Source: an uncultured Intrasporangiaceae bacterium (GTDB lineage Bacteria; Actinomycetota; Actinomycetes; Actinomycetales; Dermatophilaceae). Taken from it: 64,000 bases of DNA. Shown here piece after piece: positions 47,534 to 64,000 of the stretch. The stretch lies in NCBI GenBank assembly GCA_964647395.1, contig CAZYHR010000002.1, positions 5,601 through 69,600 of the forward strand. Direction: 5' to 3'. The notes below the pieces were generated by a model. That model did no database searches, was not told the origin of the DNA, and was given only the letters and a program-made list of their open reading frames with translations. A program made the position numbers and the translations under genes. Each line of letters opens with the position of its first letter. Position 1 is the stretch's first letter.

Positions 47534-48199
47534 GTGACCGAGATGACGACCCAGACCGTGCCGACCACGGCCGGTGCCGTCGACGAGCCCTGGTCGCCGC
47601 CGTCCTGGGAGCACATCGTCACCGAGCACTCGGGCCGGGTCTATCGCCTCGCCTACCGGCTGACCGGTAACCCGCACGACGCCGAGGACCTCACCCACGA
47701 CGTGTTCGTGCGGGTGTTCCGCTCGCTGCACTCCTACACGCCGGGCACCTTCGAGGGTTGGCTGCACCGCATCACCACCAACGTCTTCCTGGACAAGATG
47801 CGCCGCAAGCAGCGGATCCGCTTCGACGCGCTGCCCGAGGACGCGCCGTCCCGCCTGGCGACCCGCGAGCCCGGCCCGGAGCAGGTCTTCGACGAGCGGC
47901 ACCTGGACGACGACATCCAGCGGGCCCTCGACGCGCTGAGCCCCGAGTTCCGGGCGGCCGTCGTGCTGTGCGACATCGAGGGCCTGTCCTACGAGGAGAT
48001 CGCGGCCACCCTCGACATCAAACTCGGCACCGTCCGCTCCCGGATCCACCGCGGCCGGGCCCAACTGCGCGAGGCGCTGGCCCATCGCGCGCCGCGGCCG
48101 GAAGCCGTGCCGGCCGGGACCGCCGCGAGCGGGCCGTCCGCCCGCCCCACCCGGACCCTGCCGGTGCGCCGACTGCTCCCCGCCGGTCGAGGGGCGTGA
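47534..48199 (+). CDS. sigE: ECF RNA polymerase sigma factor SigE
   Basis: Region 2 ([25 protein letters not shown]) and region 4 ([25 protein letters not shown]) are present, and the gene is followed by a ZAS anti-sigma factor and htrA. Confidence 0.9.
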
Positions 48200-48807
48200 T
48201 GGCCCGACACCTCGGCGACGAGCTCAGCGACTACGTCGACCGCCGGATGCCGGCGGCGCTGCTGCTTGCCTGGGACCGGCATCTGGTCGGCTGTCAGCTG
48301 TGCCGGTGCGCGGCCGATCAGGAGCGCCGGGTCCTGGCGTCGCTGCGGGCCAACCCGGCCCCGCACGTGCCCTCCGGCCTGCACCAGATGCTGCTCGCGC
48401 TCAGCCTGCCCGGTGAGCCCCCGGCCGGCGCTGCCGGGGTCGCCCCCGCGGGCCCGCCGATCCCCGCGCCACCGCCGGGCGCGCCGCACCCGCTGGCCGT
48501 CGGCCCGTCCCGGCTGCCCACCCTCGGCCGGGCCGCCCCCGCGCACTACCGGTCGCTGCGTCGCCCGCTCGCGCTGGCGGGCGCGGTCGCCGGGTCCGCC
48601 GCCGCCGCGGCGCTGACCATCGGCCTGGCCACCCCGGTCGGCTCGTCCTCGGCGGCGGTCGTGCAGCCGGCCCCCGCCACCGCGCCCGGCTGGAACGCGG
48701 TCGGCGTCTCCGGCGCCTATTCGTGGGTGCCCAGCGTCGTGCAGGTCGGCGGGCCCAGCCGGGTGCAGAGTGTCCTGGCCCCCGCCACGGAGCGACCCAG
48801 CCGATGA
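48199..48807 (+). CDS. rseA: Zinc-associated anti-sigma factor (RseA-like)
   Basis: It has an N-terminal HxxxCxxC motif (RHLVGCQLC). Its ATG overlaps the sigE stop (GTGATG). Confidence 0.8.
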   Translation: MARHLGDELSDYVDRRMPAALLLAWDRHLVGCQLCRCAADQERRVLASLRANPAPHVPSGLHQMLLALSLPGEPPAGAAGVAPAGPPIPAPPPGAPHPLAVGPSRLPTLGRAAPAHYRSLRRPLALAGAVAGSAAAAALTIGLATPVGSSSAAVVQPAPATAPGWNAVGVSGAYSWVPSVVQVGGPSRVQSVLAPATERPSR

Positions 48808-50231
48808 GCCAGCCAGGCAGCCCCCCGCCGGCCGGGCCGCCTGGCGGCTATCCGCCGCCCGGCTCGTCCGCACCCACCCAGCGGTTGACCGGCTTCGACC
48901 CGGGCTACCCGGCCCCGCAGGGCTGGCACCCCGATCCGGCCGGACAACCCCGCCCGGCCCCGTCGGGTCCGATGGCCCCCGGCCCGGCCGCCCCGGGTCC
49001 GGGCGGCCCCGGTCCGGGCGCCCCCGGTCCGGTCGCCGCTGGCTACTCGATGCCACCGGGCGCCGGCGGCCCCGGGCAGTGGGGTGCGCCCGCGGCATAC
49101 CAGGGGAGTCCGGCGACCGCCCCGCTGCCGCGCCCGGGGACCCCGGCTCAGCAGCCGCCGGCCCGGCCGCGGCGCTCGACCGGCCTGCTCGTGGGCGTCG
49201 CCGCGATCGGGCTGACCGCCGGCCTGCTCGGCGGGGGCGCCGCCGGAGTGCTGGCCGGGCGCACCGTGACCCCGCAGCCGCTGTCCCCGACGCCCGGCGC
49301 CCCGGTCGCGGTCAACCGGCCCGACGGCAGCATCGCCAAGATCGCCGCCCAGGCGCTGCCCTCCGTGGTGACCATCAAGATCCGCGGCAGCGCCGGCTCG
49401 GGCACCGGGTCGGGGTTCGTCGTCGACGACAGCGGCCACATCGTCACCAACAACCACGTCATCTCGACCGCGGCCAGCGGCGGCACGATCCGGGTCGAGT
49501 TGCACGACGGCACCTCGGTCGACGCGACCATCGTCGGCCGGGACGCGTCCTACGACCTGGCCGTGCTCAAGGTCGACCGGTCCGGGCTGGTCCCGCTGCA
49601 GTGGGGTCGCTCGGCCGACATCGTCGTCGGTGACGGGGTCATCGCGGTCGGTGCACCGCTGGGTCTGGAGTCGACGGTGACGACCGGCATCGTGTCGGCG
49701 CTCGGGCGCCCGGTCTCGGCCGGCGGCGGCGACGAGACCTCCTACATCAACGCGATCCAGACCGATGCGGCCATCAACCCGGGCAACTCCGGCGGGCCGC
49801 TGCTCGACCTCAACGGCCGGGTCATCGGGGTCAACTCGGCGATCGCCCGCCTGCCGGGCTCGACCAGCGGCACCGGCGGCAGCATCGGGCTCGGTTTCGC
49901 GATCCCGAGCGACCAGGCGGCCAAGACCGTCCAGCAGTTGATCAGCACCGGCAAGGCCGTGCATCCGATCGTCGGGGTGCGCCTGGACTCCAACTACGAC
50001 GGCGACGGCGGCAAGATCCTCAGCTCCGGCGGTGTTCCCAGCGGCGGCAACGCCGCGGCGGCCGGCCTGCGCGACGGCGACGTCATCGTCGCCATCGACG
50101 GCAAGCGGATCACCAGCGCAGAGCACCTCATCGTCTCGATCCGCAGTCGCGACGTGGGCGATACAGTGCGACTGACGGTGGATCGCGGTGGGCAGACCGT
50201 GGACATCACCCTGACCCTGCAGGCGGGTTGA
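48804..50231 (+). CDS. htrA: HtrA/DegP family serine protease with PDZ domain
   Basis: It has a Pro-rich N-terminus and a TM, the catalytic triad context (TNNHV; D...AVLKV; GNSGGPL) and a C-terminal PDZ (GLRDGDVIVAIDG). Confidence 0.9.
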   Translation: MSQPGSPPPAGPPGGYPPPGSSAPTQRLTGFDPGYPAPQGWHPDPAGQPRPAPSGPMAPGPAAPGPGGPGPGAPGPVAAGYSMPPGAGGPGQWGAPAAYQGSPATAPLPRPGTPAQQPPARPRRSTGLLVGVAAIGLTAGLLGGGAAGVLAGRTVTPQPLSPTPGAPVAVNRPDGSIAKIAAQALPSVVTIKIRGSAGSGTGSGFVVDDSGHIVTNNHVISTAASGGTIRVELHDGTSVDATIVGRDASYDLAVLKVDRSGLVPLQWGRSADIVVGDGVIAVGAPLGLESTVTTGIVSALGRPVSAGGGDETSYINAIQTDAAINPGNSGGPLLDLNGRVIGVNSAIARLPGSTSGTGGSIGLGFAIPSDQAAKTVQQLISTGKAVHPIVGVRLDSNYDGDGGKILSSGGVPSGGNAAAAGLRDGDVIVAIDGKRITSAEHLIVSIRSRDVGDTVRLTVDRGGQTVDITLTLQAG

Positions 50232-57407: not shown

Positions 57408-58241
57408 TCACCAGCGCGACGTGGCAGCGGCCAGCACCTCGCCGAACAGCACCCCCGCGTCGATGTCGTAGCCGCGCCGGGTGAACCACTCGGCCATGGT
57501 CCGCGCGTCCCGCTCGAGGAACTCGAATCCGTGCGGATTGCCGATGACGTCGACGATCTGCGGCCAGTCGATGAGGACCAGCCGGTCGCCGTCGAGCAGG
57601 ACGTTGTAGGGCGACAGGTCACCGTGCGCCCAGCCGAGGCCGGCCAGGTGCAGCATCGCGTCCCGCACCTGCTCGAACAGCCCGGGCAGTGCGCGCCGCT
57701 CCGGCCGGCACTGGGCCAGCCGGGGCGCGGCCACCCCGTCGGCGCCGACGAACTCCATGAGCAGTTCGCGGTCGTCGAGCTGCACGGGATAGGGCACCGG
57801 CAGTCCCTGGGCCCACAGTGTCGCGAGGGCGCCGAACTCGGCGCCGGCCCACTGGCCGGCGATGACCTCCTTGCCGAAGGCGGTGCGGCGGGCCATGGCG
57901 CGGTTCTCCCGGGAGCGGCGCACCCGGCGCCCCTCCAGATAGCCGGCGTCCCGGTGGAACAGCCGGTGCTGCGAGGTGCGGAAGCGCTTGGCCGCCATGA
58001 TGCTGTCGCGGTCCGGCCGGCCAGGGACCCACCGGTGCACCAGGTGGACGTCGGCCTCCTTGCCGGTCTTGAGGATGCCGAGGTCGGCGTCGACGGCGCC
58101 GAACTCGGTGACGACCCAGCCGGGTCGCGGTGCCGGCCCGTGGGTGGCGCCGTCCCAGCTGGACCAGCGCTCGCCCTCGGGGGCGGCGTCAGGCAGTGAG
58201 TCGAGGGCGAATCGGTTGTCCTCGAAGGGGGTTGCGGGCAT
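57408..58241 (-). CDS. RIO-type atypical serine protein kinase
   Basis: It has the ATP-binding LKTGKEADVHLV, catalytic loop HGDLSPYNVLL and metal-binding LIDWPQ. ATG 58241 was chosen; the ORF-track 5' extension lacks coding character. Confidence 0.75.
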   Translation of the reverse strand: MPATPFEDNRFALDSLPDAAPEGERWSSWDGATHGPAPRPGWVVTEFGAVDADLGILKTGKEADVHLVHRWVPGRPDRDSIMAAKRFRTSQHRLFHRDAGYLEGRRVRRSRENRAMARRTAFGKEVIAGQWAGAEFGALATLWAQGLPVPYPVQLDDRELLMEFVGADGVAAPRLAQCRPERRALPGLFEQVRDAMLHLAGLGWAHGDLSPYNVLLDGDRLVLIDWPQIVDVIGNPHGFEFLERDARTMAEWFTRRGYDIDAGVLFGEVLAAATSRW

Positions 58242-58325
58242 GAGTGGTCTCCGGAGCGTGAGGGGTGGGGGTGCGGGAGGCACCCCGGGCAGTGGTGGAC
58301 ATCTCGCGCTCCTTCGCTCGCCGGA

Positions 58326-58378
58326 CCGGTATGCCGCGGCTGCGGCCACCTCGTCGGTCCACCGTGGCGGCATACCGG
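58326..58378. repeat. Inverted repeat CCGGTATGCCGC-N29-GCGGCATACCGG in the RIO-kinase / CHAT-gene intergenic region
   Basis: Read directly from the sequence. The spacer contains a second GCCAC...GTGGC pairing. Confidence 0.75.
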
Positions 58379-58524
58379 GTCCACCGCAACCGGTTTTCCC
58401 TTCTCGGCCCCGCCCGGCCAGGCGGCAGGAAGTATCACCAAAGGGGTGCGCCGCTCCTCCCACTCGCGAGACAGTGGACCCGTCGCCGTCCCACCGTCAG
58501 CGTGGACTCTCCCAAGGAGGCGCC

Positions 58525-61500
58525 GTGCCCGAGAAGCGACTTGCCCGTGGCAGCCTGCGAGTCAACTACCCCGACTCGCACACCATGTCCCGCGACCGGC
58601 CGGGGTCGCAGGAGCGCGGGCTGGAGGGCGACCTCGTCCACGGTGCCCTGCTGGAAGCGTTGCGGGACACCGGGTTCCAGGACGTCGAGGAGATCTCGCT
58701 CAAACCCAAGCGGACTCGCGGCCTCGACCCGTCAGGCGGCGCCGGCAAACCGCTCACGCTCGACCTGGACGTCGCCGCCGGGGAGGACGCGGTCGTGCTG
58801 GTGGAGCAGGACGGCTGCTACTCGTGGCATCTGCCCAAGAGCGCGACGACCAGGACCCGCCGGCTGCCGGGGGAGGCGCACACGGCGTCGTTCGAGATCC
58901 CGTTGCGGGCCGCCGCCCCGACCCGCCCGCGGGGGCGCGGCGGCGGCCGGGCCGGCGCGATCCGGACCCGCGGCCTGGTCGGCGACCTGGTCGGTGGGGC
59001 GGTGCGGGCGCTGGTGCTCAAGTTCGCCGCGCCCGTGCTCGTCGGCAAGGCGATCGACTTCCTCGAGCGGCACGTCGAGCCCGGACTGGTGCACATCGCG
59101 GGCGTCGACCCCGCCACCTGGACGCGGGTCGACCGGCTCGAGCAACTCCCGCTGCCGACCGGCCGACCGCTGCGGATCCTGCTGTTCGTCCACGGCACGT
59201 TCTCCTCGACCGTCGGGGCGTTCGGGACCCTCGGTGTCGTCGGCGCCGGGCCCGACTTCCTGCGCGCGGCGGTGGACCGCTACGACGCGGTCGTCGGCTT
59301 CGACCACCCGACCCTGTCGGTCGACCCGCTGGCCAACGCGACCGACCTGCTGCAGCGGGTCCGCGGGGTCACCGGTGGGGTGACCTTCGACGTCGTGTGC
59401 CACAGCCGGGGCGGGCTGACCACCCGATCCTTCGCGGAATACGTGCTGCCCCCGTCCGGCTGGGACGGGCGGGTCGGCACCGCCGTCTTCGTCGCGGCGA
59501 CGAACAACGGCACCCACCTGGCCGACCCGCAACGCTGGAACGACCTCATCGACCTGACGACCAACCTCGCGGCGGTCGGCGCGGGCGCGCTGGTCGCGGT
59601 GCCCGGAGCCGGGCCGGTGCTGGCCGGGGTGGCCGGCGCCCTCAAGGGCCTCGGGGCGCTGGTCAAGTACCTCGCGGCCTACCTGTTCACCGAGGGCGGC
59701 GTGCCCGGCCTCGCGGCGATGACCCCGGGCGGCGCGTTCGTCACGGGGATCAACCAGACCCAGCCGGGACAGCCCGGGCCCGGCGCCGCGTGGCACGTCG
59801 TGCAGTCCAACTTCCACGTCACCCTGCTGGACGACAGCCACCGGCCGCCGCAGTTCCCCAAGGAACTCGCGGTGCGCCTGGCCGAGGGTCTGGTCGATCA
59901 GGTCTTCAAGGGCGACAACGACCTGGTTGTCGACTGCGCGTCCATGGGCTCGATCGACGCGGCGGCCGGCGGCGGATTCGTCGCCAGCACCTACGACTTC
60001 GGCACCAACGACGTCGTCTATCACGGCAACTACTTCGACCAGGCCGACTTCGTCGGCGCGCTGGGCGACATGCTGTTCGGCGGCGAGGCGACGGCGGCAC
60101 CGACGATCGACCGCGGGGACTTCGATCTGCCCACCCCGGTCACCCCGGCCGGCTCGCCCCCGGAGTCGACGCCGGACGAGGTCGACCCGGGCCGGCGCAG
60201 GCCCGCCAAGGGTGGCGGCGCGGGCGGGGTCCGGTCGCGCGGCATCACCTGGGCCGGGGCGGCCGACCAGCCGGTGACCACCACTGCGGGCGACTTCGCC
60301 GACCCGGGTGAGCCGGCGACCGCCGGGGCCGACCCCGATGAGCCGGTGACCGGCACCGCCGACGAGCCGGTCACTGCTGCCGCCGACGAGCCGGCGCAGG
60401 CCCATCTACTCGCCGAGATGCCCGATCGTCCGGTCGTGGGCCGGCCGGCCTCGCTGCGAGTGGCCTTGTCCCGCAAGGAGATCGCCTCGGTGGTGAGCGC
60501 CCCCGCGACGGGCCGGGCGACGATCATGGGGATGCCCGGCCGGGTCCTCGACGTCCGGGTGCTGCCGAAGAAGAACTGCTCGATCCAGGGCGACGACGAG
60601 GGCTCCTTCACGCTGCCCACCGGCAGCGGCACCTCCGAGCTGCGCTTCGACGTGGTGCCCCGGGACGCCGGGCCGCTCGTCGTCACGGTCCTCGTCGAGG
60701 CCGGTGGCTATCCGCTGGCCCGGCTCACCGTGCAGGCGACAGCCACCGCGAAGGCACCGAAGGCCGGCGGGCGGACCTCGGCGCGGGCGACCGCGGTGGC
60801 CGACCCGGCCGCGGACGCCCCGGGCCTGGCGTCGGCGCTGTGGCTGCAGATCGAGCCGGTCGAACGCGACCAGGGCACCACCTTCGTCTACACGGTCAAG
60901 TCCGAGAAGCTGGGCCTGCTCGAGCGATTCGAGTCCGCGCCGCTCAAGGACATCGAGGGCTTCGTCGTCGAGCTGTTCCGCGACCTGAGCCGGTCCTTCG
61001 ACGACCACGGCACCGGCAAGGCCTTCGTCACGGCGCTGCAGGACCGTGGGGCGCAGCTGTTCGACGAGCTGTTCCCGGAACCGCTGCGGGCGCTGCTGTG
61101 GCAGCACCGGGCCGAACTGGGCCAGATCTGGCTGCTCGCCGACGAGCCCTACCTGCCGTGGGAACTCGTGCACCTCAAGCCCGCGAAGGGGCGCCGGCCA
61201 CGCACGCCGTGGTTCCTCGGCCAGCTCGGGCTGGTGCGCTCGCAGTACGGCGCCTTCCCGCCCCGGGTGCTGTTGGCCCGGCCGGGCCGGGTGCGGTCGC
61301 TGTGCCCGGACTACCTGGATTCCCGGTGGCGGCTGGAGGAGTCCGCGGCCGAGGCGGCATACCTCAAGGATCGGTTCGGCGCCGAGCCGGTCGCCGCGAC
61401 CGAGCGTGACGTGCTGGCCCTGCTGCGCAAGGGCGACTTCGACCTGCTGCACTTCTCCGGTCACGGCCTGTGCGATCCCGGCGACGTCGCCTCGGCCAAG

Positions 61501-61905
61501 ATCATGCTCGCCGGCCGCAAGGGCCGCGGCGGCGCGGTCACCCCGCAGTATCTGTCGGCCACCACGGTGAGCCAGAACGTCGACTACACCAAGAGCGAGA
61601 ACCGGCCGGTCGTCGTGCTCAACGCCTGCCAGACCGCCCGGGGCGGCCAGCAGCTGTCCAGCCTGGGCGGCTTCGCCCGCGCCTTCCTCGAGGCCGGTGC
61701 CGGGGCCTACGTGTCGACCCTGTGGTCGGTGCGCCAGGAGCCGGCCCGCGACTTCGTCGAGACCTTCTACGACCGGCTGCTCGGCGGAGCCACGGTCGGC
61801 GAGGCGTCGGTGGCCGCGCGTGAGGCGGCGCGGGCTGCCGGGGATGCCTCGTGGCTGGCCTACGCCGTCTACGCCAGGCCCGACGCGATCCTGCAGACGA
61901 CCTGA
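58525..61905 (+). CDS. Multidomain protein: unknown N-terminal domain + lipase-like alpha/beta-hydrolase + acidic linker/beta-sandwich + C-terminal CHAT (caspase-fold) protease
   Basis: GTG 58525 is preceded by AAGGAGG. Hydrolase motifs are ILLFVHGTFSS, VVCHSRGG (Ser codon 59404), GDNDLVVD (59920) and VVYHGNYF (60022). CHAT motifs are DLLHFSGHG (His codon 61462) and VVVLNACQTARG (Cys codon 61627). The ORF-track 5' part (57976-58524) is antisense to the kinase. Confidence 0.8.
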   Translation: MPEKRLARGSLRVNYPDSHTMSRDRPGSQERGLEGDLVHGALLEALRDTGFQDVEEISLKPKRTRGLDPSGGAGKPLTLDLDVAAGEDAVVLVEQDGCYSWHLPKSATTRTRRLPGEAHTASFEIPLRAAAPTRPRGRGGGRAGAIRTRGLVGDLVGGAVRALVLKFAAPVLVGKAIDFLERHVEPGLVHIAGVDPATWTRVDRLEQLPLPTGRPLRILLFVHGTFSSTVGAFGTLGVVGAGPDFLRAAVDRYDAVVGFDHPTLSVDPLANATDLLQRVRGVTGGVTFDVVCHSRGGLTTRSFAEYVLPPSGWDGRVGTAVFVAATNNGTHLADPQRWNDLIDLTTNLAAVGAGALVAVPGAGPVLAGVAGALKGLGALVKYLAAYLFTEGGVPGLAAMTPGGAFVTGINQTQPGQPGPGAAWHVVQSNFHVTLLDDSHRPPQFPKELAVRLAEGLVDQVFKGDNDLVVDCASMGSIDAAAGGGFVASTYDFGTNDVVYHGNYFDQADFVGALGDMLFGGEATAAPTIDRGDFDLPTPVTPAGSPPESTPDEVDPGRRRPAKGGGAGGVRSRGITWAGAADQPVTTTAGDFADPGEPATAGADPDEPVTGTADEPVTAAADEPAQAHLLAEMPDRPVVGRPASLRVALSRKEIASVVSAPATGRATIMGMPGRVLDVRVLPKKNCSIQGDDEGSFTLPTGSGTSELRFDVVPRDAGPLVVTVLVEAGGYPLARLTVQATATAKAPKAGGRTSARATAVADPAADAPGLASALWLQIEPVERDQGTTFVYTVKSEKLGLLERFESAPLKDIEGFVVELFRDLSRSFDDHGTGKAFVTALQDRGAQLFDELFPEPLRALLWQHRAELGQIWLLADEPYLPWELVHLKPAKGRRPRTPWFLGQLGLVRSQYGAFPPRVLLARPGRVRSLCPDYLDSRWRLEESAAEAAYLKDRFGAEPVAATERDVLALLRKGDFDLLHFSGHGLCDPGDVASAKIMLAGRKGRGGAVTPQYLSATTVSQNVDYTKSENRPVVVLNACQTARGGQQLSSLGGFARAFLEAGAGAYVSTLWSVRQEPARDFVETFYDRLLGGATVGEASVAAREAARAAGDASWLAYAVYARPDAILQTT

Positions 61906-61947
61906 AAACCCTTACCCCCCAAGACGATCGACAGGAGTTGCGGCATC

Positions 61948-62778
61948 ATGGCCAAGCGTGCGGTGTGCGTCGGGATCAACGAGTTCGCCAACCTGCCCCG
62001 GGCCGACTGGCTCTATGGCTGCGTCAACGACGCCCAGGACATGTCGGCGATGCTGCGCAAGCGCGGGTTCCCCACCAAGGCCATCACCGTGCTCACCGAC
62101 TCGGCGGCCACCAAGGCGGCGATCATGGCGGCCCTGGACGCGATGGTGGCCGGCGCCCAGGCCGGTGACCAGCTGGTCTTCTCGCTGTCCTCGCACGGCA
62201 CCCAGGTGCCGGACACCAGCGGTGACGAGGTCGACCGGGCCGACGAGTGCTTCGTCTGCTACGACATCCGCCAGGAGGGTGGCCAGTGGTCACCCGACAC
62301 CGTCATCCTCGACGACGAACTGCGCGACCTGTTCGCCCGGGTGCCCAAGGGGGTGGTCCTGGAGGTCTTCCTGGACACCTGCCACTCGGGCACCGGGTTG
62401 AAGTCGGAGGACCTGCTCTCGGGGCGCCGGCCCCGCTTCCTGCCGCCGCCGACGGTGCGCGGGCTGCGGGCGGTCGCCGGCGCGGCCGCGAGCCGCACCG
62501 TCACGGACGCGGTCAAGGGCCTGCCGGCGGCCAACCGCCCGATCCTCTACGCCGGCTGCCGGTCCGACCAGACCTCGGCCGACGCGACCTTCGAGGGCCG
62601 GTCCAACGGCGCGTTCACCTACTACCTGCTCCAGGCGCTGGCCCAGGACGCCACCCGGCCGCGCAGCGAGATCCACCAGGCGCTGACCGCCAGCCTGCGG
62701 GCGGCGGAGTTCTCCCAGCGCCCGACCCTCGAGGCCGCGCCGAAGGCGAAGAAGACGCCGGTCGGCGAGCCCTGGTGA
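61948..62778 (+). CDS. Caspase family (peptidase C14, metacaspase-like) protein
   Basis: It has AVCVGINEF, the His motif LVFSLSSHGTQ (codon 62194) and the Cys motif FLDTCHSGTG (codon 62380). SD CAGGAG is present, 42 nt after the CHAT gene stop. Confidence 0.85.
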   Translation: MAKRAVCVGINEFANLPRADWLYGCVNDAQDMSAMLRKRGFPTKAITVLTDSAATKAAIMAALDAMVAGAQAGDQLVFSLSSHGTQVPDTSGDEVDRADECFVCYDIRQEGGQWSPDTVILDDELRDLFARVPKGVVLEVFLDTCHSGTGLKSEDLLSGRRPRFLPPPTVRGLRAVAGAAASRTVTDAVKGLPAANRPILYAGCRSDQTSADATFEGRSNGAFTYYLLQALAQDATRPRSEIHQALTASLRAAEFSQRPTLEAAPKAKKTPVGEPW

Positions 62779-62820
62779 GCCGCCCACCGCGGCGCCCGGT
62801 CCGGTGATCCGGGGCGGCCG

Positions 62821-62841
62821 GGCACCCGCGGCCCGGGTGCC
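62821..62841. terminator. Short hairpin GGCACCCG-CGGCC-CGGGTGCC between convergent genes
   Basis: It has an 8-bp stem and lies between the caspase stop (62778) and the ABC transporter stop (62863). Confidence 0.35.
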
Positions 62842-62862
62842 TCCGCACCCGAGCGGCGGGGA

Positions 62863-64000
62863 TCAGCCGGCCAGGTGACCCCACGCGGGGGCCAGCGCCG
62901 ACCAGGGACCGACGGCGGCCACCCGGCCCTCTTCGAGGACGACCACCCGGTCGGCCCGAGCCAGTGCGGCGCGCTTGGACGTGGCGCCCACGACGGTGGC
63001 CGACCGCTCGCGCAAGGCGTGCCACAGCTCGATCTCGGTGCGGGCGTCGAGGGCGCTGGACACGTCGTCGGCGAGCAGCAGCTCGGCGTCGGCGGCCAGG
63101 GCCCGGGCCAGCGCCAGCCGCTGCACCTGGCCGCCGGACAATCGCACGCCGCGGTGCCCGACCAGCGCCGTGGCGCCACCGGCCGACTCGACGTCGAGCT
63201 GCAGCCGGGCATCGGAGACCGGCCCGGCGAAGTCGCGGCCGAAACCGAGCTGGACGTTCTCGGCGAAGGTGCCGGAGAGCACCCGCGGCACCTGAGCGAC
63301 ATAGGCCACCTGCCCGGGGCGCAGGAACACCTCGGCGTCGTCGACCTCGGTGTCGTTCCAGCGCAGCGATCCGGTGTAGTCGGTGAGGCCGGCCAGGGTG
63401 CGCAGCAGTGTCGACTTGCCCGAGCCCACCTGCCCGAGCAGCAACACGAGCTCGCCGCGCTCGATCGTCAGGTCGACGTCCTCCAGGCCGATCGTGCCGT
63501 CCTCGTGCACCGCGGTGAGGGTGGTGAGGCAGAGCCGTTGCAGCGGCACCCGATCGACCTCGGGCGGCGGTGGCGCGGCCCCGGTGAGCAGGTCGACGCC
63601 CGGGGGCAGGTGCATGAGGTCGACTCCACCGGCCATCCGGCTGGTCGCCGTCTGCCAGGACCGGGTGCCCGGCGCCTCGGTGACCACCGCGCTCGCCACC
63701 CGCCCGAACCATTCGAAGCCGTTGACCGCGTTGACGACGAGCAGGGCGGTGGCCAGGCCCCACAGGTCGGCGAGCACGGCGGCCCAGGCCGCGACGGCGC
63801 CGACCCGGACCATGACACCGGGGACCCCCTCGAGCACGGCCTGCACCCGGTGCTCGCGGACCGCCGCTTCGACCCGGCCATGGTCGACCCGGCGCAGATG
63901 CCGGGCGGCCTCGGGCGTGCCGGCGGCCAGCTTGACCGTCTGGGCCGACTCGAGCGTGGACACCAGGGCCCGGCCGAAACGCGCCCGCGCCGCCGCTGCC
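62863..64000 (-). CDS. ABC transporter, fused permease/ATP-binding protein (exporter type), 5' end outside window
   Basis: The C-terminal NBD has Walker A GQVGSGKST, signature LSGGQVQRLALARAL and Walker B LLLADDVSSALD. The upstream part looks like TM helices and runs off the window. Confidence 0.8.
   Translation of the reverse strand, partial: AAAARARFGRALVSTLESAQTVKLAAGTPEAARHLRRVDHGRVEAAVREHRVQAVLEGVPGVMVRVGAVAAWAAVLADLWGLATALLVVNAVNGFEWFGRVASAVVTEAPGTRSWQTATSRMAGGVDLMHLPPGVDLLTGAAPPPPEVDRVPLQRLCLTTLTAVHEDGTIGLEDVDLTIERGELVLLLGQVGSGKSTLLRTLAGLTDYTGSLRWNDTEVDDAEVFLRPGQVAYVAQVPRVLSGTFAENVQLGFGRDFAGPVSDARLQLDVESAGGATALVGHRGVRLSGGQVQRLALARALAADAELLLADDVSSALDARTEIELWHALRERSATVVGATSKRAALARADRVVVLEEGRVAAVGPWSALAPAWGHLAG

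Follow-up and report, generated by a model that had tools for sequence, protein, structure and literature searches.

A lipase-like hydrolase–CHAT protease gene and an adjoining metacaspase gene form a genetically linked accessory module in Dermatophilaceae

In a stretch of 64,000 nucleotides from an uncultured Intrasporangiaceae bacterium (assembly GCA_964647395.1, contig CAZYHR010000002.1, positions 5,601 to 69,600; hereafter the window), two adjacent open reading frames, ORF1 and ORF2, were found to encode a lipase-like alpha/beta hydrolase fused to a CHAT protease and a stand-alone metacaspase-type protease, respectively. The two genes are functionally linked, their catalytic residues are intact and the pair is accessory. 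We propose, with a probability of roughly 0.55, that the module is a protease-gated, lipase-like death or defence effector that is licensed by two caspase-fold proteases. An earlier reading of the sequence had described two caspase-fold proteases encoded on the same strand, 42 nucleotides apart and each with its own Shine-Dalgarno sequence, and proved correct in coordinates, motifs and residue numbering:

58514–58520, + strand: Shine-Dalgarno sequence of ORF1 (AAGGAGG, by direct reading), 4 nucleotides before the GTG at 58525
58525–61905, + strand: ORF1, 1126 residues, GTG start, stop codon at 61903–61905
61934–61937, + strand: GGAG ribosome-binding site of ORF2, within the 42-nucleotide spacer (61906–61947)
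61948–62778, + strand: ORF2, 276 residues, ATG start, Peptidase_C14 protein of the metacaspase/orthocaspase type

Pfam searches and an AlphaFold2 (AF2) model placed DUF7362, the alpha/beta hydrolase (DUF7379), a disordered linker, DUF7363 and CHAT in this order along ORF1, and all domain scores of ORF1 and ORF2 exceeded the curated Pfam cut-offs. The GTG at 58525 is supported as the start of ORF1, because homologues share the first residue and the DUF7362 profile begins at residue 9. The caspase fold of both proteins was borne out by Pfam (CHAT and Peptidase_C14) and Foldseek, which agreed.

To place the pair among its relatives, a homologue scan was carried out with one genome per species; it yielded 441 loci (given L numbers below), of which the best 80 were examined. 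The four-domain architecture of ORF1 was found in 326 proteins. In line with the expectation that the two genes would be neighbours in other genomes, a caspase gene lay directly downstream of the ORF1 homologue and in its orientation in 66 of 80 loci; most of the others are loci where the contig stops or that are only distantly related. When the count is limited to actinobacterial loci whose sequence extends far enough downstream, the caspase gene was adjacent in 66 of 69, and adjacency persisted down to about 44% identity. Two unrelated chromosomal contexts were seen: in most loci of Dermatophilaceae/Intrasporangiaceae (Intrasporangium, Terrabacter, Terracoccus, Humibacillus, Lapillicoccus and Ca. 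Phosphoribacter) the pair stands beside a divergent RIO kinase gene, and in another lineage it is located between purK/purE and MFS/MerR genes, without RIO. Two separate genes are the majority architecture, but three loci (L004, L016 and L042) carry a single open reading frame, an in-frame fusion with the order DUF7362-DUF7379-DUF7363-CHAT-C14, and in two others (L029 and L055) DUF7362-DUF7379 is joined straight to C14, so that the caspase replaces the DUF7363-CHAT half. Conserved adjacency in two contexts together with in-frame fusions establishes a functional link between ORF1 and the caspase gene, and the same evidence rules out chance neighbours. A metacaspase that acts independently of ORF1 would fit the separate ribosome-binding site of each gene, but it is highly improbable in view of the adjacency in 66 of 80 loci and two contexts, the five fused loci of two architectures, and the gain or loss of the pair as a unit at the RIO slot described below.

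The variant loci, which also include two with DUF7362-DUF7379 only (L031 and L070), identify the DUF7362-hydrolase half as the constant core and the caspase-fold proteases as its exchangeable partners, the metacaspase partner being specific to the actinobacterial clade. Exchange was seen even within one species: three strains of Humibacillus xanthopallidus (DSM 21776, KV-663 and SLM-627) have three forms, namely the complete fusion (L016), the hydrolase-caspase form without CHAT (L055) and two genes (L063). Hydrolase alone, hydrolase-caspase, hydrolase-CHAT, hydrolase-CHAT with a separate caspase, and all three fused constitute a natural dissection series, from which it could be learned how a lipase-like effector comes to be licensed by caspase-fold proteases, and whether a pair of such proteases works in series or in parallel.

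Accessory status, which had also been predicted, was supported by sampling the slot independently of the pair, through RIO kinase orthologues of at least 70% identity (six loci). Between the RIO kinase and an acyl-CoA dehydrogenase gene, two of the six loci contained the pair (L086, Monashia; L093, I. mesophilum). The remaining four (L087, L088, L094 and L095) lacked it: three held other cargo (a trypsin gene of 291 residues; DinB_2 and Peptidase_S51 genes; a pyridoxal-phosphate (PLP)-dependent decarboxylase gene), and in one the slot was empty, with RIO directly adjoining the acyl-CoA dehydrogenase gene. The slot is a small, hypervariable hotspot of gene turnover. Since only two of six slots are occupied, the pair is accessory, variably present and not universal to the family, and a universal housekeeping feature is ruled out by its absence from four of the six relatives. 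Of the variable or defence-island context that had been considered, the first part was confirmed by this small variable slot, but the second was not, as housekeeping genes lie on either side and the pair does not sit in a defence island. The association with RIO is probably synteny only, because the pair was also found without RIO in the second lineage. The RIO kinase itself matched, weakly and below threshold (25.7 bits, cut-off 40), the kinase-like domain TCAD9, which belongs to ternary conflict systems.

Beyond these loci, the N-terminal half of ORF1 belongs to a large family, which yet carries DUF labels only: about 2,100 clusters (50% identity) were retrieved at E ≤ 1e-3 and 477 at E ≤ 1e-30, in two length classes of about 520–700 and about 1100–1330 residues. 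The family spans Actinomycetota, Acidobacteriota, Gemmatimonadota, Myxococcota and Alphaproteobacteria, with named members from Gemmatimonadaceae and Acidobacteria, and most of it has no caspase partner. Among 37 sampled members, DUF7379 was present in 37, DUF7362 in 35, DUF7363 in 23, CHAT in 20 and TCAD7, a domain named for nucleoside triphosphate (NTP)-dependent ternary conflict systems, in 19. In Caulobacter vibrioides T5M6 (L071, 13352–18824) the ORF1 homologue is followed by genes for a Trypsin_2 protein, an AAA ATPase and an OmpA-domain protein, and on the megaplasmid of Ruegeria pomeroyi DSS-3 (L089, 11521–15388) it lies between an IS5 element and a 986-residue AAA ATPase, with a hypothetical protein nearby; these proteobacterial hydrolase-CHAT loci may be NTPase-dependent versions of the system. 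A Gemmatimonadaceae metagenome-assembled genome (L084, 7409–18162) has a distant ORF1 relative beside a second, divergent CHAT protein of 780 residues, a PhdYeFM-PIN toxin-antitoxin pair, a faint M48 peptidase match and a pair formed by EACC1 and a 598-residue caspase, and looks like a conflict-system island. The contexts of the distant relatives are of the conflict type. No ORF1 homologue was found in the phages searched.

These distributions bear on a non-lethal role, in which the hydrolase, as a lipase or esterase under regulation, would serve the stress response, development or the remodelling of the envelope or of storage lipids in Dermatophilaceae, outside any phage conflict, and CHAT and the metacaspase would be its maturation or turnover proteases. 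In its favour, the pair is chromosomal and keeps the same slot over many genera, between housekeeping genes and away from any mobile-element genes; PADLOC found no defence system and phages carry no homologue; and the protein DdvA shows that CHAT proteins can regulate rather than kill. Against it stand the patchy occurrence in close relatives (two of six slots occupied, other cargo in the slot), truncation and decay (L031, L070 and L079), relatives on plasmids, in toxin-antitoxin and EACC1-caspase islands and with AAA ATPases, and the presence of TCAD7, of conflict-type ternary systems, in half of the wider family. On balance we regard this role as rather unlikely.

The effector that we propose is the hydrolase of ORF1. 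The AF2 model of ORF1 was built from 111 sequences and had a mean predicted local distance difference test (pLDDT) of 83 and a predicted template modelling score (pTM) of 0.59. The N-terminal half of the protein contains the following features:

58549–59025, + strand: DUF7362, residues 9–167, beta-rich (Pfam 6e-34)
59002–60078, + strand: lipase-like alpha/beta hydrolase, residues ~160–518, of which DUF7379 covers 219–410 (Pfam 6e-63)
59404–59406, + strand: Ser294, nucleophile in an H-S-R-G-G elbow, invariant in 111 homologues
59527–59679, + strand: hydrophobic helical hairpin at the lid position, residues 335–385 (AF2 helices 335–356 and 363–385)
59920–59922, + strand: Asp466, triad acid (N-D-L-V-V-D), invariant
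60022–60024, + strand: His500, triad base, invariant

A Ser-Asp-His triad and a nucleophile elbow are set in the alpha/beta-hydrolase fold, and Foldseek matched the hydrolase to family I lipases of Proteus, P. aeruginosa, Burkholderia and Geobacillus and to the phospholipase PlaB (PDB entries 6jd9, 1ex9, 2es4, 4x85 and 6zth). These lipase matches and the invariant triad uphold the view that a lipase-like hydrolase is fused to CHAT. H223, S294, D466 and H500 are intact in 78 of 79 loci; the hydrolase thus looks catalytically active, with a putative lipolytic or esterase activity. The sole locus that has lost the nucleophile (L079, 1729–4854, from a Marmoricola sp. metagenome-assembled genome; S294 to G) also carries D470 to G and has neither a downstream caspase gene nor the R-x-L motifs described below, which suggests a decaying copy. 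The hairpin, with Kyte-Doolittle values of up to 1.8 in 19-residue windows, is possibly a membrane-interacting lid. In the model, beta strands fall within residues 3–125, with low-confidence loops at 30–33 and 130–145, and we propose that DUF7362 may be an inhibitory domain or pro-domain of ORF1. As a separate candidate, a secreted lipase toxin was rejected, as no signal-peptide-like N-terminus was seen in ORF1 by eye (no predictor was run). The most hydrophobic 19-residue window of ORF1 lies outside the hairpin, at residues 155–173 (58987–59043; Kyte-Doolittle 1.86; LVGGAVRALVLKFAAPVLV).

The C-terminal half of ORF1 is separated from the hydrolase by a disordered linker, which differs in length and sequence between homologues and is the breakpoint at which variant loci lose or swap domains:

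60085–60381, + strand: disordered Pro/Asp/Glu-rich linker, residues 521–619 (pLDDT about 30–40)
60412–60729, + strand: DUF7363, residues 630–735 (Pfam 2e-23)
61126–61902, + strand: CHAT caspase-fold protease, residues ~868–1126 (Pfam covers 935–1102, 1.5e-24)
61462–61464, + strand: CHAT catalytic His980, invariant
61627–61629, + strand: CHAT catalytic Cys1035, invariant

The DUF7363 region is all-beta in the AF2 model (strands at 624–741) and can be read as an Ig-like domain. The CHAT domain scored 87 bits against a cut-off of 24, and its sequence matched that of the DdvA CHAT domain (PDB 8rot, 9e-8). With the C-terminal ~380 residues, Foldseek retrieved Csx29/TPR-CHAT (7zoq, 6.7e-10), the CHAT anti-sigma factor DdvA, separase and SAVED-CHAT, the matches to solved CHAT or separase structures (7zoq, 8rot, 8d9h, 8tl0 and 9hms) spanning 7e-10 to 1e-6. 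The catalytic residues that had been named from the sequence, S294, H980 and C1035 of ORF1 and H83 and C145 of ORF2, were found to be invariant in 111 homologues and in 72 of 72 loci, respectively, and H980 and C1035 are kept in every locus that has a CHAT domain. The CHAT protease accordingly looks active. A P-R-F-L tetrapeptide, PWFL in the window sequence, precedes the CHAT core at residues 895–898 (61207–61218; in the homologues P 102/111, R 89/111, F 111/111 and L 111/111) and is also kept in the disordered linker of ORF2 at residues 162–165 (62431–62442; P 39/42, R/K 42/42 and F/Y 42/42). The two proteins might share it as a motif for docking or cleavage or as a pseudosubstrate, or the resemblance might be a coincidence.

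ORF2 matched Pfam Peptidase_C14 with 97 bits (cut-off 21.4, E 1.8e-27), and its profile matched Yca1 in the PDB (4e-34). Foldseek aligned it with GSU0716 (3e-15) and with plant (At), yeast and trypanosome (Tb) metacaspases, over a range of 1e-15 to 1e-9. The following features were located in it:

62194–62196, + strand: catalytic His83, kept in 72 of 72 loci
62380–62382, + strand: catalytic Cys145, kept in 72 of 72 loci
62386–62493, + strand: disordered p20-p10 linker, residues 147–182 (predicted pLDDT <50)

The dyad of the pattern SHG ... DxCHSG is also invariant in 42 homologues, and the protease looks active. D28 and D143, the counterparts in the alignment of the acidic residues that line the metacaspase S1 pocket, are kept in 72 of 72 loci. 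Metacaspases cleave after Arg or Lys, and ORF2 is predicted to cut after the same residues. The p20-p10 linker holds a conserved G-R-R-P-R-F-L-P-P-P-T and an [RK]171-G-L motif, with R or K at position 163 in 72 of 72 loci and at position 171 in 61 of 72, and G172 in 67 of 72, and is a plausible processing site. Moreover, an acidic cluster, D93-x-x-D96-x-x-D99-E100 (residues 93–100, 62224–62247), aligns with the acidic loop of Yca1, and all 72 of 72 loci have D96, D99 and E100. In eukaryotic metacaspases the acidic loop takes part in Ca2+ binding; because of this correspondence, Ca2+ is a candidate trigger.

Candidate sites at which a protease might act on ORF1 were found near its N-terminus:

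58615–58623, + strand: R31-G-L, candidate site 1, R in 107 of 107 aligned homologues, in a loop with pLDDT <50
58717–58725, + strand: R65-G-L, candidate site 2, in a local block of mean pLDDT 64
58969–58983, + strand: R149-G-L-V-G, candidate site 3, at the border between disordered loop and hydrolase, after the segment 130–145 with pLDDT <50

ORF1 contains three R-G-L tripeptides in its first 150 residues and none in the remainder (P about 3e-4 to 1e-3 by shuffling), and all three lie in lower-confidence AF2 loops. Position 149 is R or K in 111 of 111 homologues, with G150 in 99 and G153 in 104 of 111, the homologue pattern after 149 being G, L, L, G. In the caspase-linked clade R31 is conserved, and roughly half of the distant loci without a caspase have it too; a basic residue at position 65 occurs in nearly all caspase-linked loci versus one of eight distant caspase-less loci. 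R31, R65 and R149 are therefore put forward as candidate cleavage sites. The hydrophobic window at residues 155–173 begins 5 residues past the candidate R149|G150 site, and a cut there would bare a Gly-rich hydrophobic N-terminus.

The zymogen status of ORF1, the cleavage sites, the order of the proteases, the substrate, the trigger and the phenotype would, in the mechanism that we envisage, be as follows. ORF1 would be a latent lipase-like hydrolase, restrained by DUF7362 and tethered to CHAT by the flexible linker. Upon a trigger, CHAT would process the p20-p10 linker of ORF2, cut ORF1 itself, or both; the activated metacaspase would then cut ORF1 at the R-x-L sites in exposed loops (R31, R65 and R149), and the freed hydrolase, via its hydrophobic lid hairpin, would attack membrane lipids or another ester substrate. 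The outcome would be growth arrest or cell death, as abortive infection or regulated cell death. In favour of this mechanism are the genetic linkage, the intact catalytic residues of all three enzymes, their folds, the candidate sites, the precedents described below, and the accessory and conflict-type distribution.

Several related systems were compared with the module. Kaur et al. (2020) described VMAP ternary systems in which the caspase-superfamily peptidase always has an alpha/beta-hydrolase gene alongside (PMC7159879). In Lysobacter capsici, LcHydrolase is a zymogen that LcCaspase cuts at two R|G sites (Evans et al. 2025, PMC12642450); its fragments kill E. coli, and the hydrolase is the death effector, its substrate being unknown (PMC12642450). 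The combination is thus less unprecedented than the original prediction assumed, the hydrolase-caspase pairing having been described in 2020 (PMC7159879) and tested in 2025 (PMC12642450). As in those systems, a lipase-like alpha/beta hydrolase is genetically coupled here to a caspase-superfamily cysteine protease (adjacent in 66 of 80 loci, with CHAT in cis), conserved Arg-Gly motifs lie in exposed segments, and both kinds are common in Actinobacteria and Pseudomonadota. In contrast to LcHydrolase, the hydrolase is fused in cis to CHAT and has an additional N-terminal DUF7362 and a separate metacaspase, and no sensor such as STAND or beta-transducin repeats is fused to the protease, Pfam showing only the four domains of ORF1 and C14. 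In contrast to the VMAP systems, no MoxR, vWA or VMAP genes were found in the window or in related actinobacterial loci, and ORF1 of the window has no TCAD7 by Pfam, unlike 19 of the 37 members of the wider family. A plasmid search with ORF2 for hydrolase-caspase pairs returned unrelated multidomain caspases only.

A second precedent is SAVED-CHAT, which cleaves and activates PCaspase (Steens et al., bioRxiv 10.1101/2023.06.23.546230); PCaspase, encoded next to it, is a broad-specificity executioner, and the SAVED sensor is N-terminal to CHAT (bioRxiv 10.1101/2023.06.23.546230). Here, too, a CHAT gene stands beside a small caspase gene, the CHAT folds are similar (PDB 8tl0, Foldseek about 1e-6), and the p20-p10 organisation of PCaspase with its cleavable region has a candidate equivalent in ORF2. 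Unlike SAVED-CHAT, ORF1 has no SAVED domain by Pfam and its N-terminal module is a lipase-like enzyme; there is no cA3 signalling and no CRISPR or CBASS gene in the window or in L081–L083 (CRISPR arrays were not scanned for), and the PADLOC SAVED_CHAT model matched the CHAT core only, with 14 bits. The suggested proteolytic cascade that releases the hydrolase is upheld in part, through precedents elsewhere for activated hydrolases (PMC12642450) and for CHAT-to-caspase activation (bioRxiv 10.1101/2023.06.23.546230).

The SAVED-CHAT parallel also raises the alternative that sensing falls to the hydrolase and the effector role to the proteases: DUF7362 and the hydrolase would bind or turn over a small molecule, lipid or peptide by which infection or damage is reported, CHAT would then activate the metacaspase, and the latter would degrade many cell proteins, as PCaspase does. 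The order of ORF1 matches that of SAVED-CHAT, with an N-terminal module, CHAT and an adjoining caspase gene (bioRxiv 10.1101/2023.06.23.546230), and no other sensor is present among the neighbours. However, the wider ORF1 family is mostly without a caspase partner, hydrolase-only and hydrolase-caspase forms occur, death is brought about by the hydrolase in the hydrolase-caspase pair that has been tested (PMC12642450), and an invariant triad with a hydrophobic lid suits an enzyme effector better than a sensor. We consider this arrangement unlikely.

Craspase (Cas7-11 with TPR-CHAT/Csx29, substrate Csx30) provided the best structural match to the C-terminal ~380 residues (7zoq, 6.7e-10) and resembles the CHAT of ORF1 as a sequence-specific CHAT protease that licenses a downstream response, but the module has no TPR repeats, Cas7-11, Csx30/Csx31 or RpoE, and RNA-guided activation is impossible. 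Borvo (BovA), a single-gene CHAT defence, resembles ORF1 in its large size, its C-terminal CHAT and the lack of an evident partner NTPase; its PADLOC model, however, matched residues 958–1103 only (E 8e-4, 16.5 bits), and there is no relationship between the N-terminal parts. ORF2 has the same fold and His/Cys dyad as metacaspases and orthocaspases (Yca1, TbMCA2, AtMC4/9 and GSU0716), and also their acidic S1 residues and acidic loop, but it is a minimal protein of 276 residues without a prodomain and is always coupled to a hydrolase-CHAT gene in this clade. In EACC1-caspase systems a membrane-damaging effector, released by cleavage, is paired with a caspase-family protease (PMC12642450); ORF2 reached only 38 bits with NCBIfam caspase_w_EACC1 (cut-off 140), and no EACC1 gene lies near the window pair. 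NCBIfam gave no family-level assignment beyond generic caspase and CHAT matches. Literature searches returned no mention of DUF7362, DUF7363 or DUF7379, and one on CHAT with lipase and anti-phage gave no description of the ORF1 family. By analogy, the module is a combination of known themes, hydrolase-caspase pairing and a CHAT-to-caspase cascade, in a cis-fused form without a recognisable sensor; it would extend the recent logic of proteolysis-gated effectors to such a form.

A number of observations weigh against a protease-gated death or defence effector. No sensor, NTPase or signal synthase lies near the pair, which leaves the trigger unexplained, and hydrolase-only loci exist (L031 and L070). 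With a pTM of 0.59 for ORF1, the inter-domain arrangement, and hence autoinhibition, is not fixed by the model. LcHydrolase is cut inside the hydrolase fold, whereas the candidate sites of ORF1 precede it, and DUF7379 is likened to LcHydrolase by description, not by sequence comparison. R149-G150 is kept in six of eight distant caspase-less loci and, because it persists without a caspase, may have a structural role or be a target of CHAT instead of the caspase, and the association of R31 and R65 with caspase presence is confounded by phylogeny. The slot is flanked by housekeeping genes in the window and in L081–L083, and no integrases or other defence genes adjoin the pair in these loci. Finally, PADLOC, which had been suggested as a check, did not recognise the pair as a known defence system: there was no system-level match, and ORF1 reached only about 1e-3 against BovA and SAVED_CHAT.

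A more far-reaching version, which we regard as speculative and improbable, is a three-enzyme death switch without a dedicated sensor, in which a Ca2+-responsive metacaspase and a cis-tethered CHAT would form a two-key lock on a membrane lipase, and envelope damage rather than phage recognition would trigger lysis, as regulated death in filamentous or floc-forming Dermatophilaceae, among them the wastewater phosphate accumulators. If true, this sensor-free switch would be a bacterial counterpart of damage-activated plant metacaspase signalling. The hosts of the pair are soil and wastewater actinobacteria, including abundant activated-sludge bacteria such as Ca. Phosphoribacter, in which lysis modules might influence both the ecology of phages and the stability of the process.

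The neighbours of the pair in the window are a DUF1003 gene, an MgtE-like gene, an HpcH/HpaI lyase gene, a PLDc_N gene, the RIO kinase gene and an ABC transporter gene. The absence of a gasdermin, a STAND NTPase, TPR and a nucleotide-signal synthase, as noted in the original prediction, holds among these neighbours, but its extension to CRISPR goes beyond what was covered, as CRISPR arrays were not scanned for. A scan for promoters and terminators over 58100–63000 returned nothing, as expected for DNA of 73% guanine plus cytosine (GC) with a non-sigma-70 consensus. The border of the variable slot, outside the module, is formed by the divergent neighbour:

57408–58463, − strand: RIO kinase (Pfam RIO1 3.5e-33)

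Homologues of this kinase cover its C-terminal 271 residues only (57411–58223), and its true start is therefore probably downstream of the first GTG, at 58463. Elsewhere in the window, GC reaches 80% at 48.0–49.5 kb, within a stretch (47758–50231) that codes for the Pro/Gly/Ala-rich N-terminus of an HtrA-like serine protease, downstream of a gene for a zf-HC2-type anti-sigma factor (both identities were read from the translations, with no family search). This stretch appears to be an ordinary region of the sigE-rseA-htrA type.

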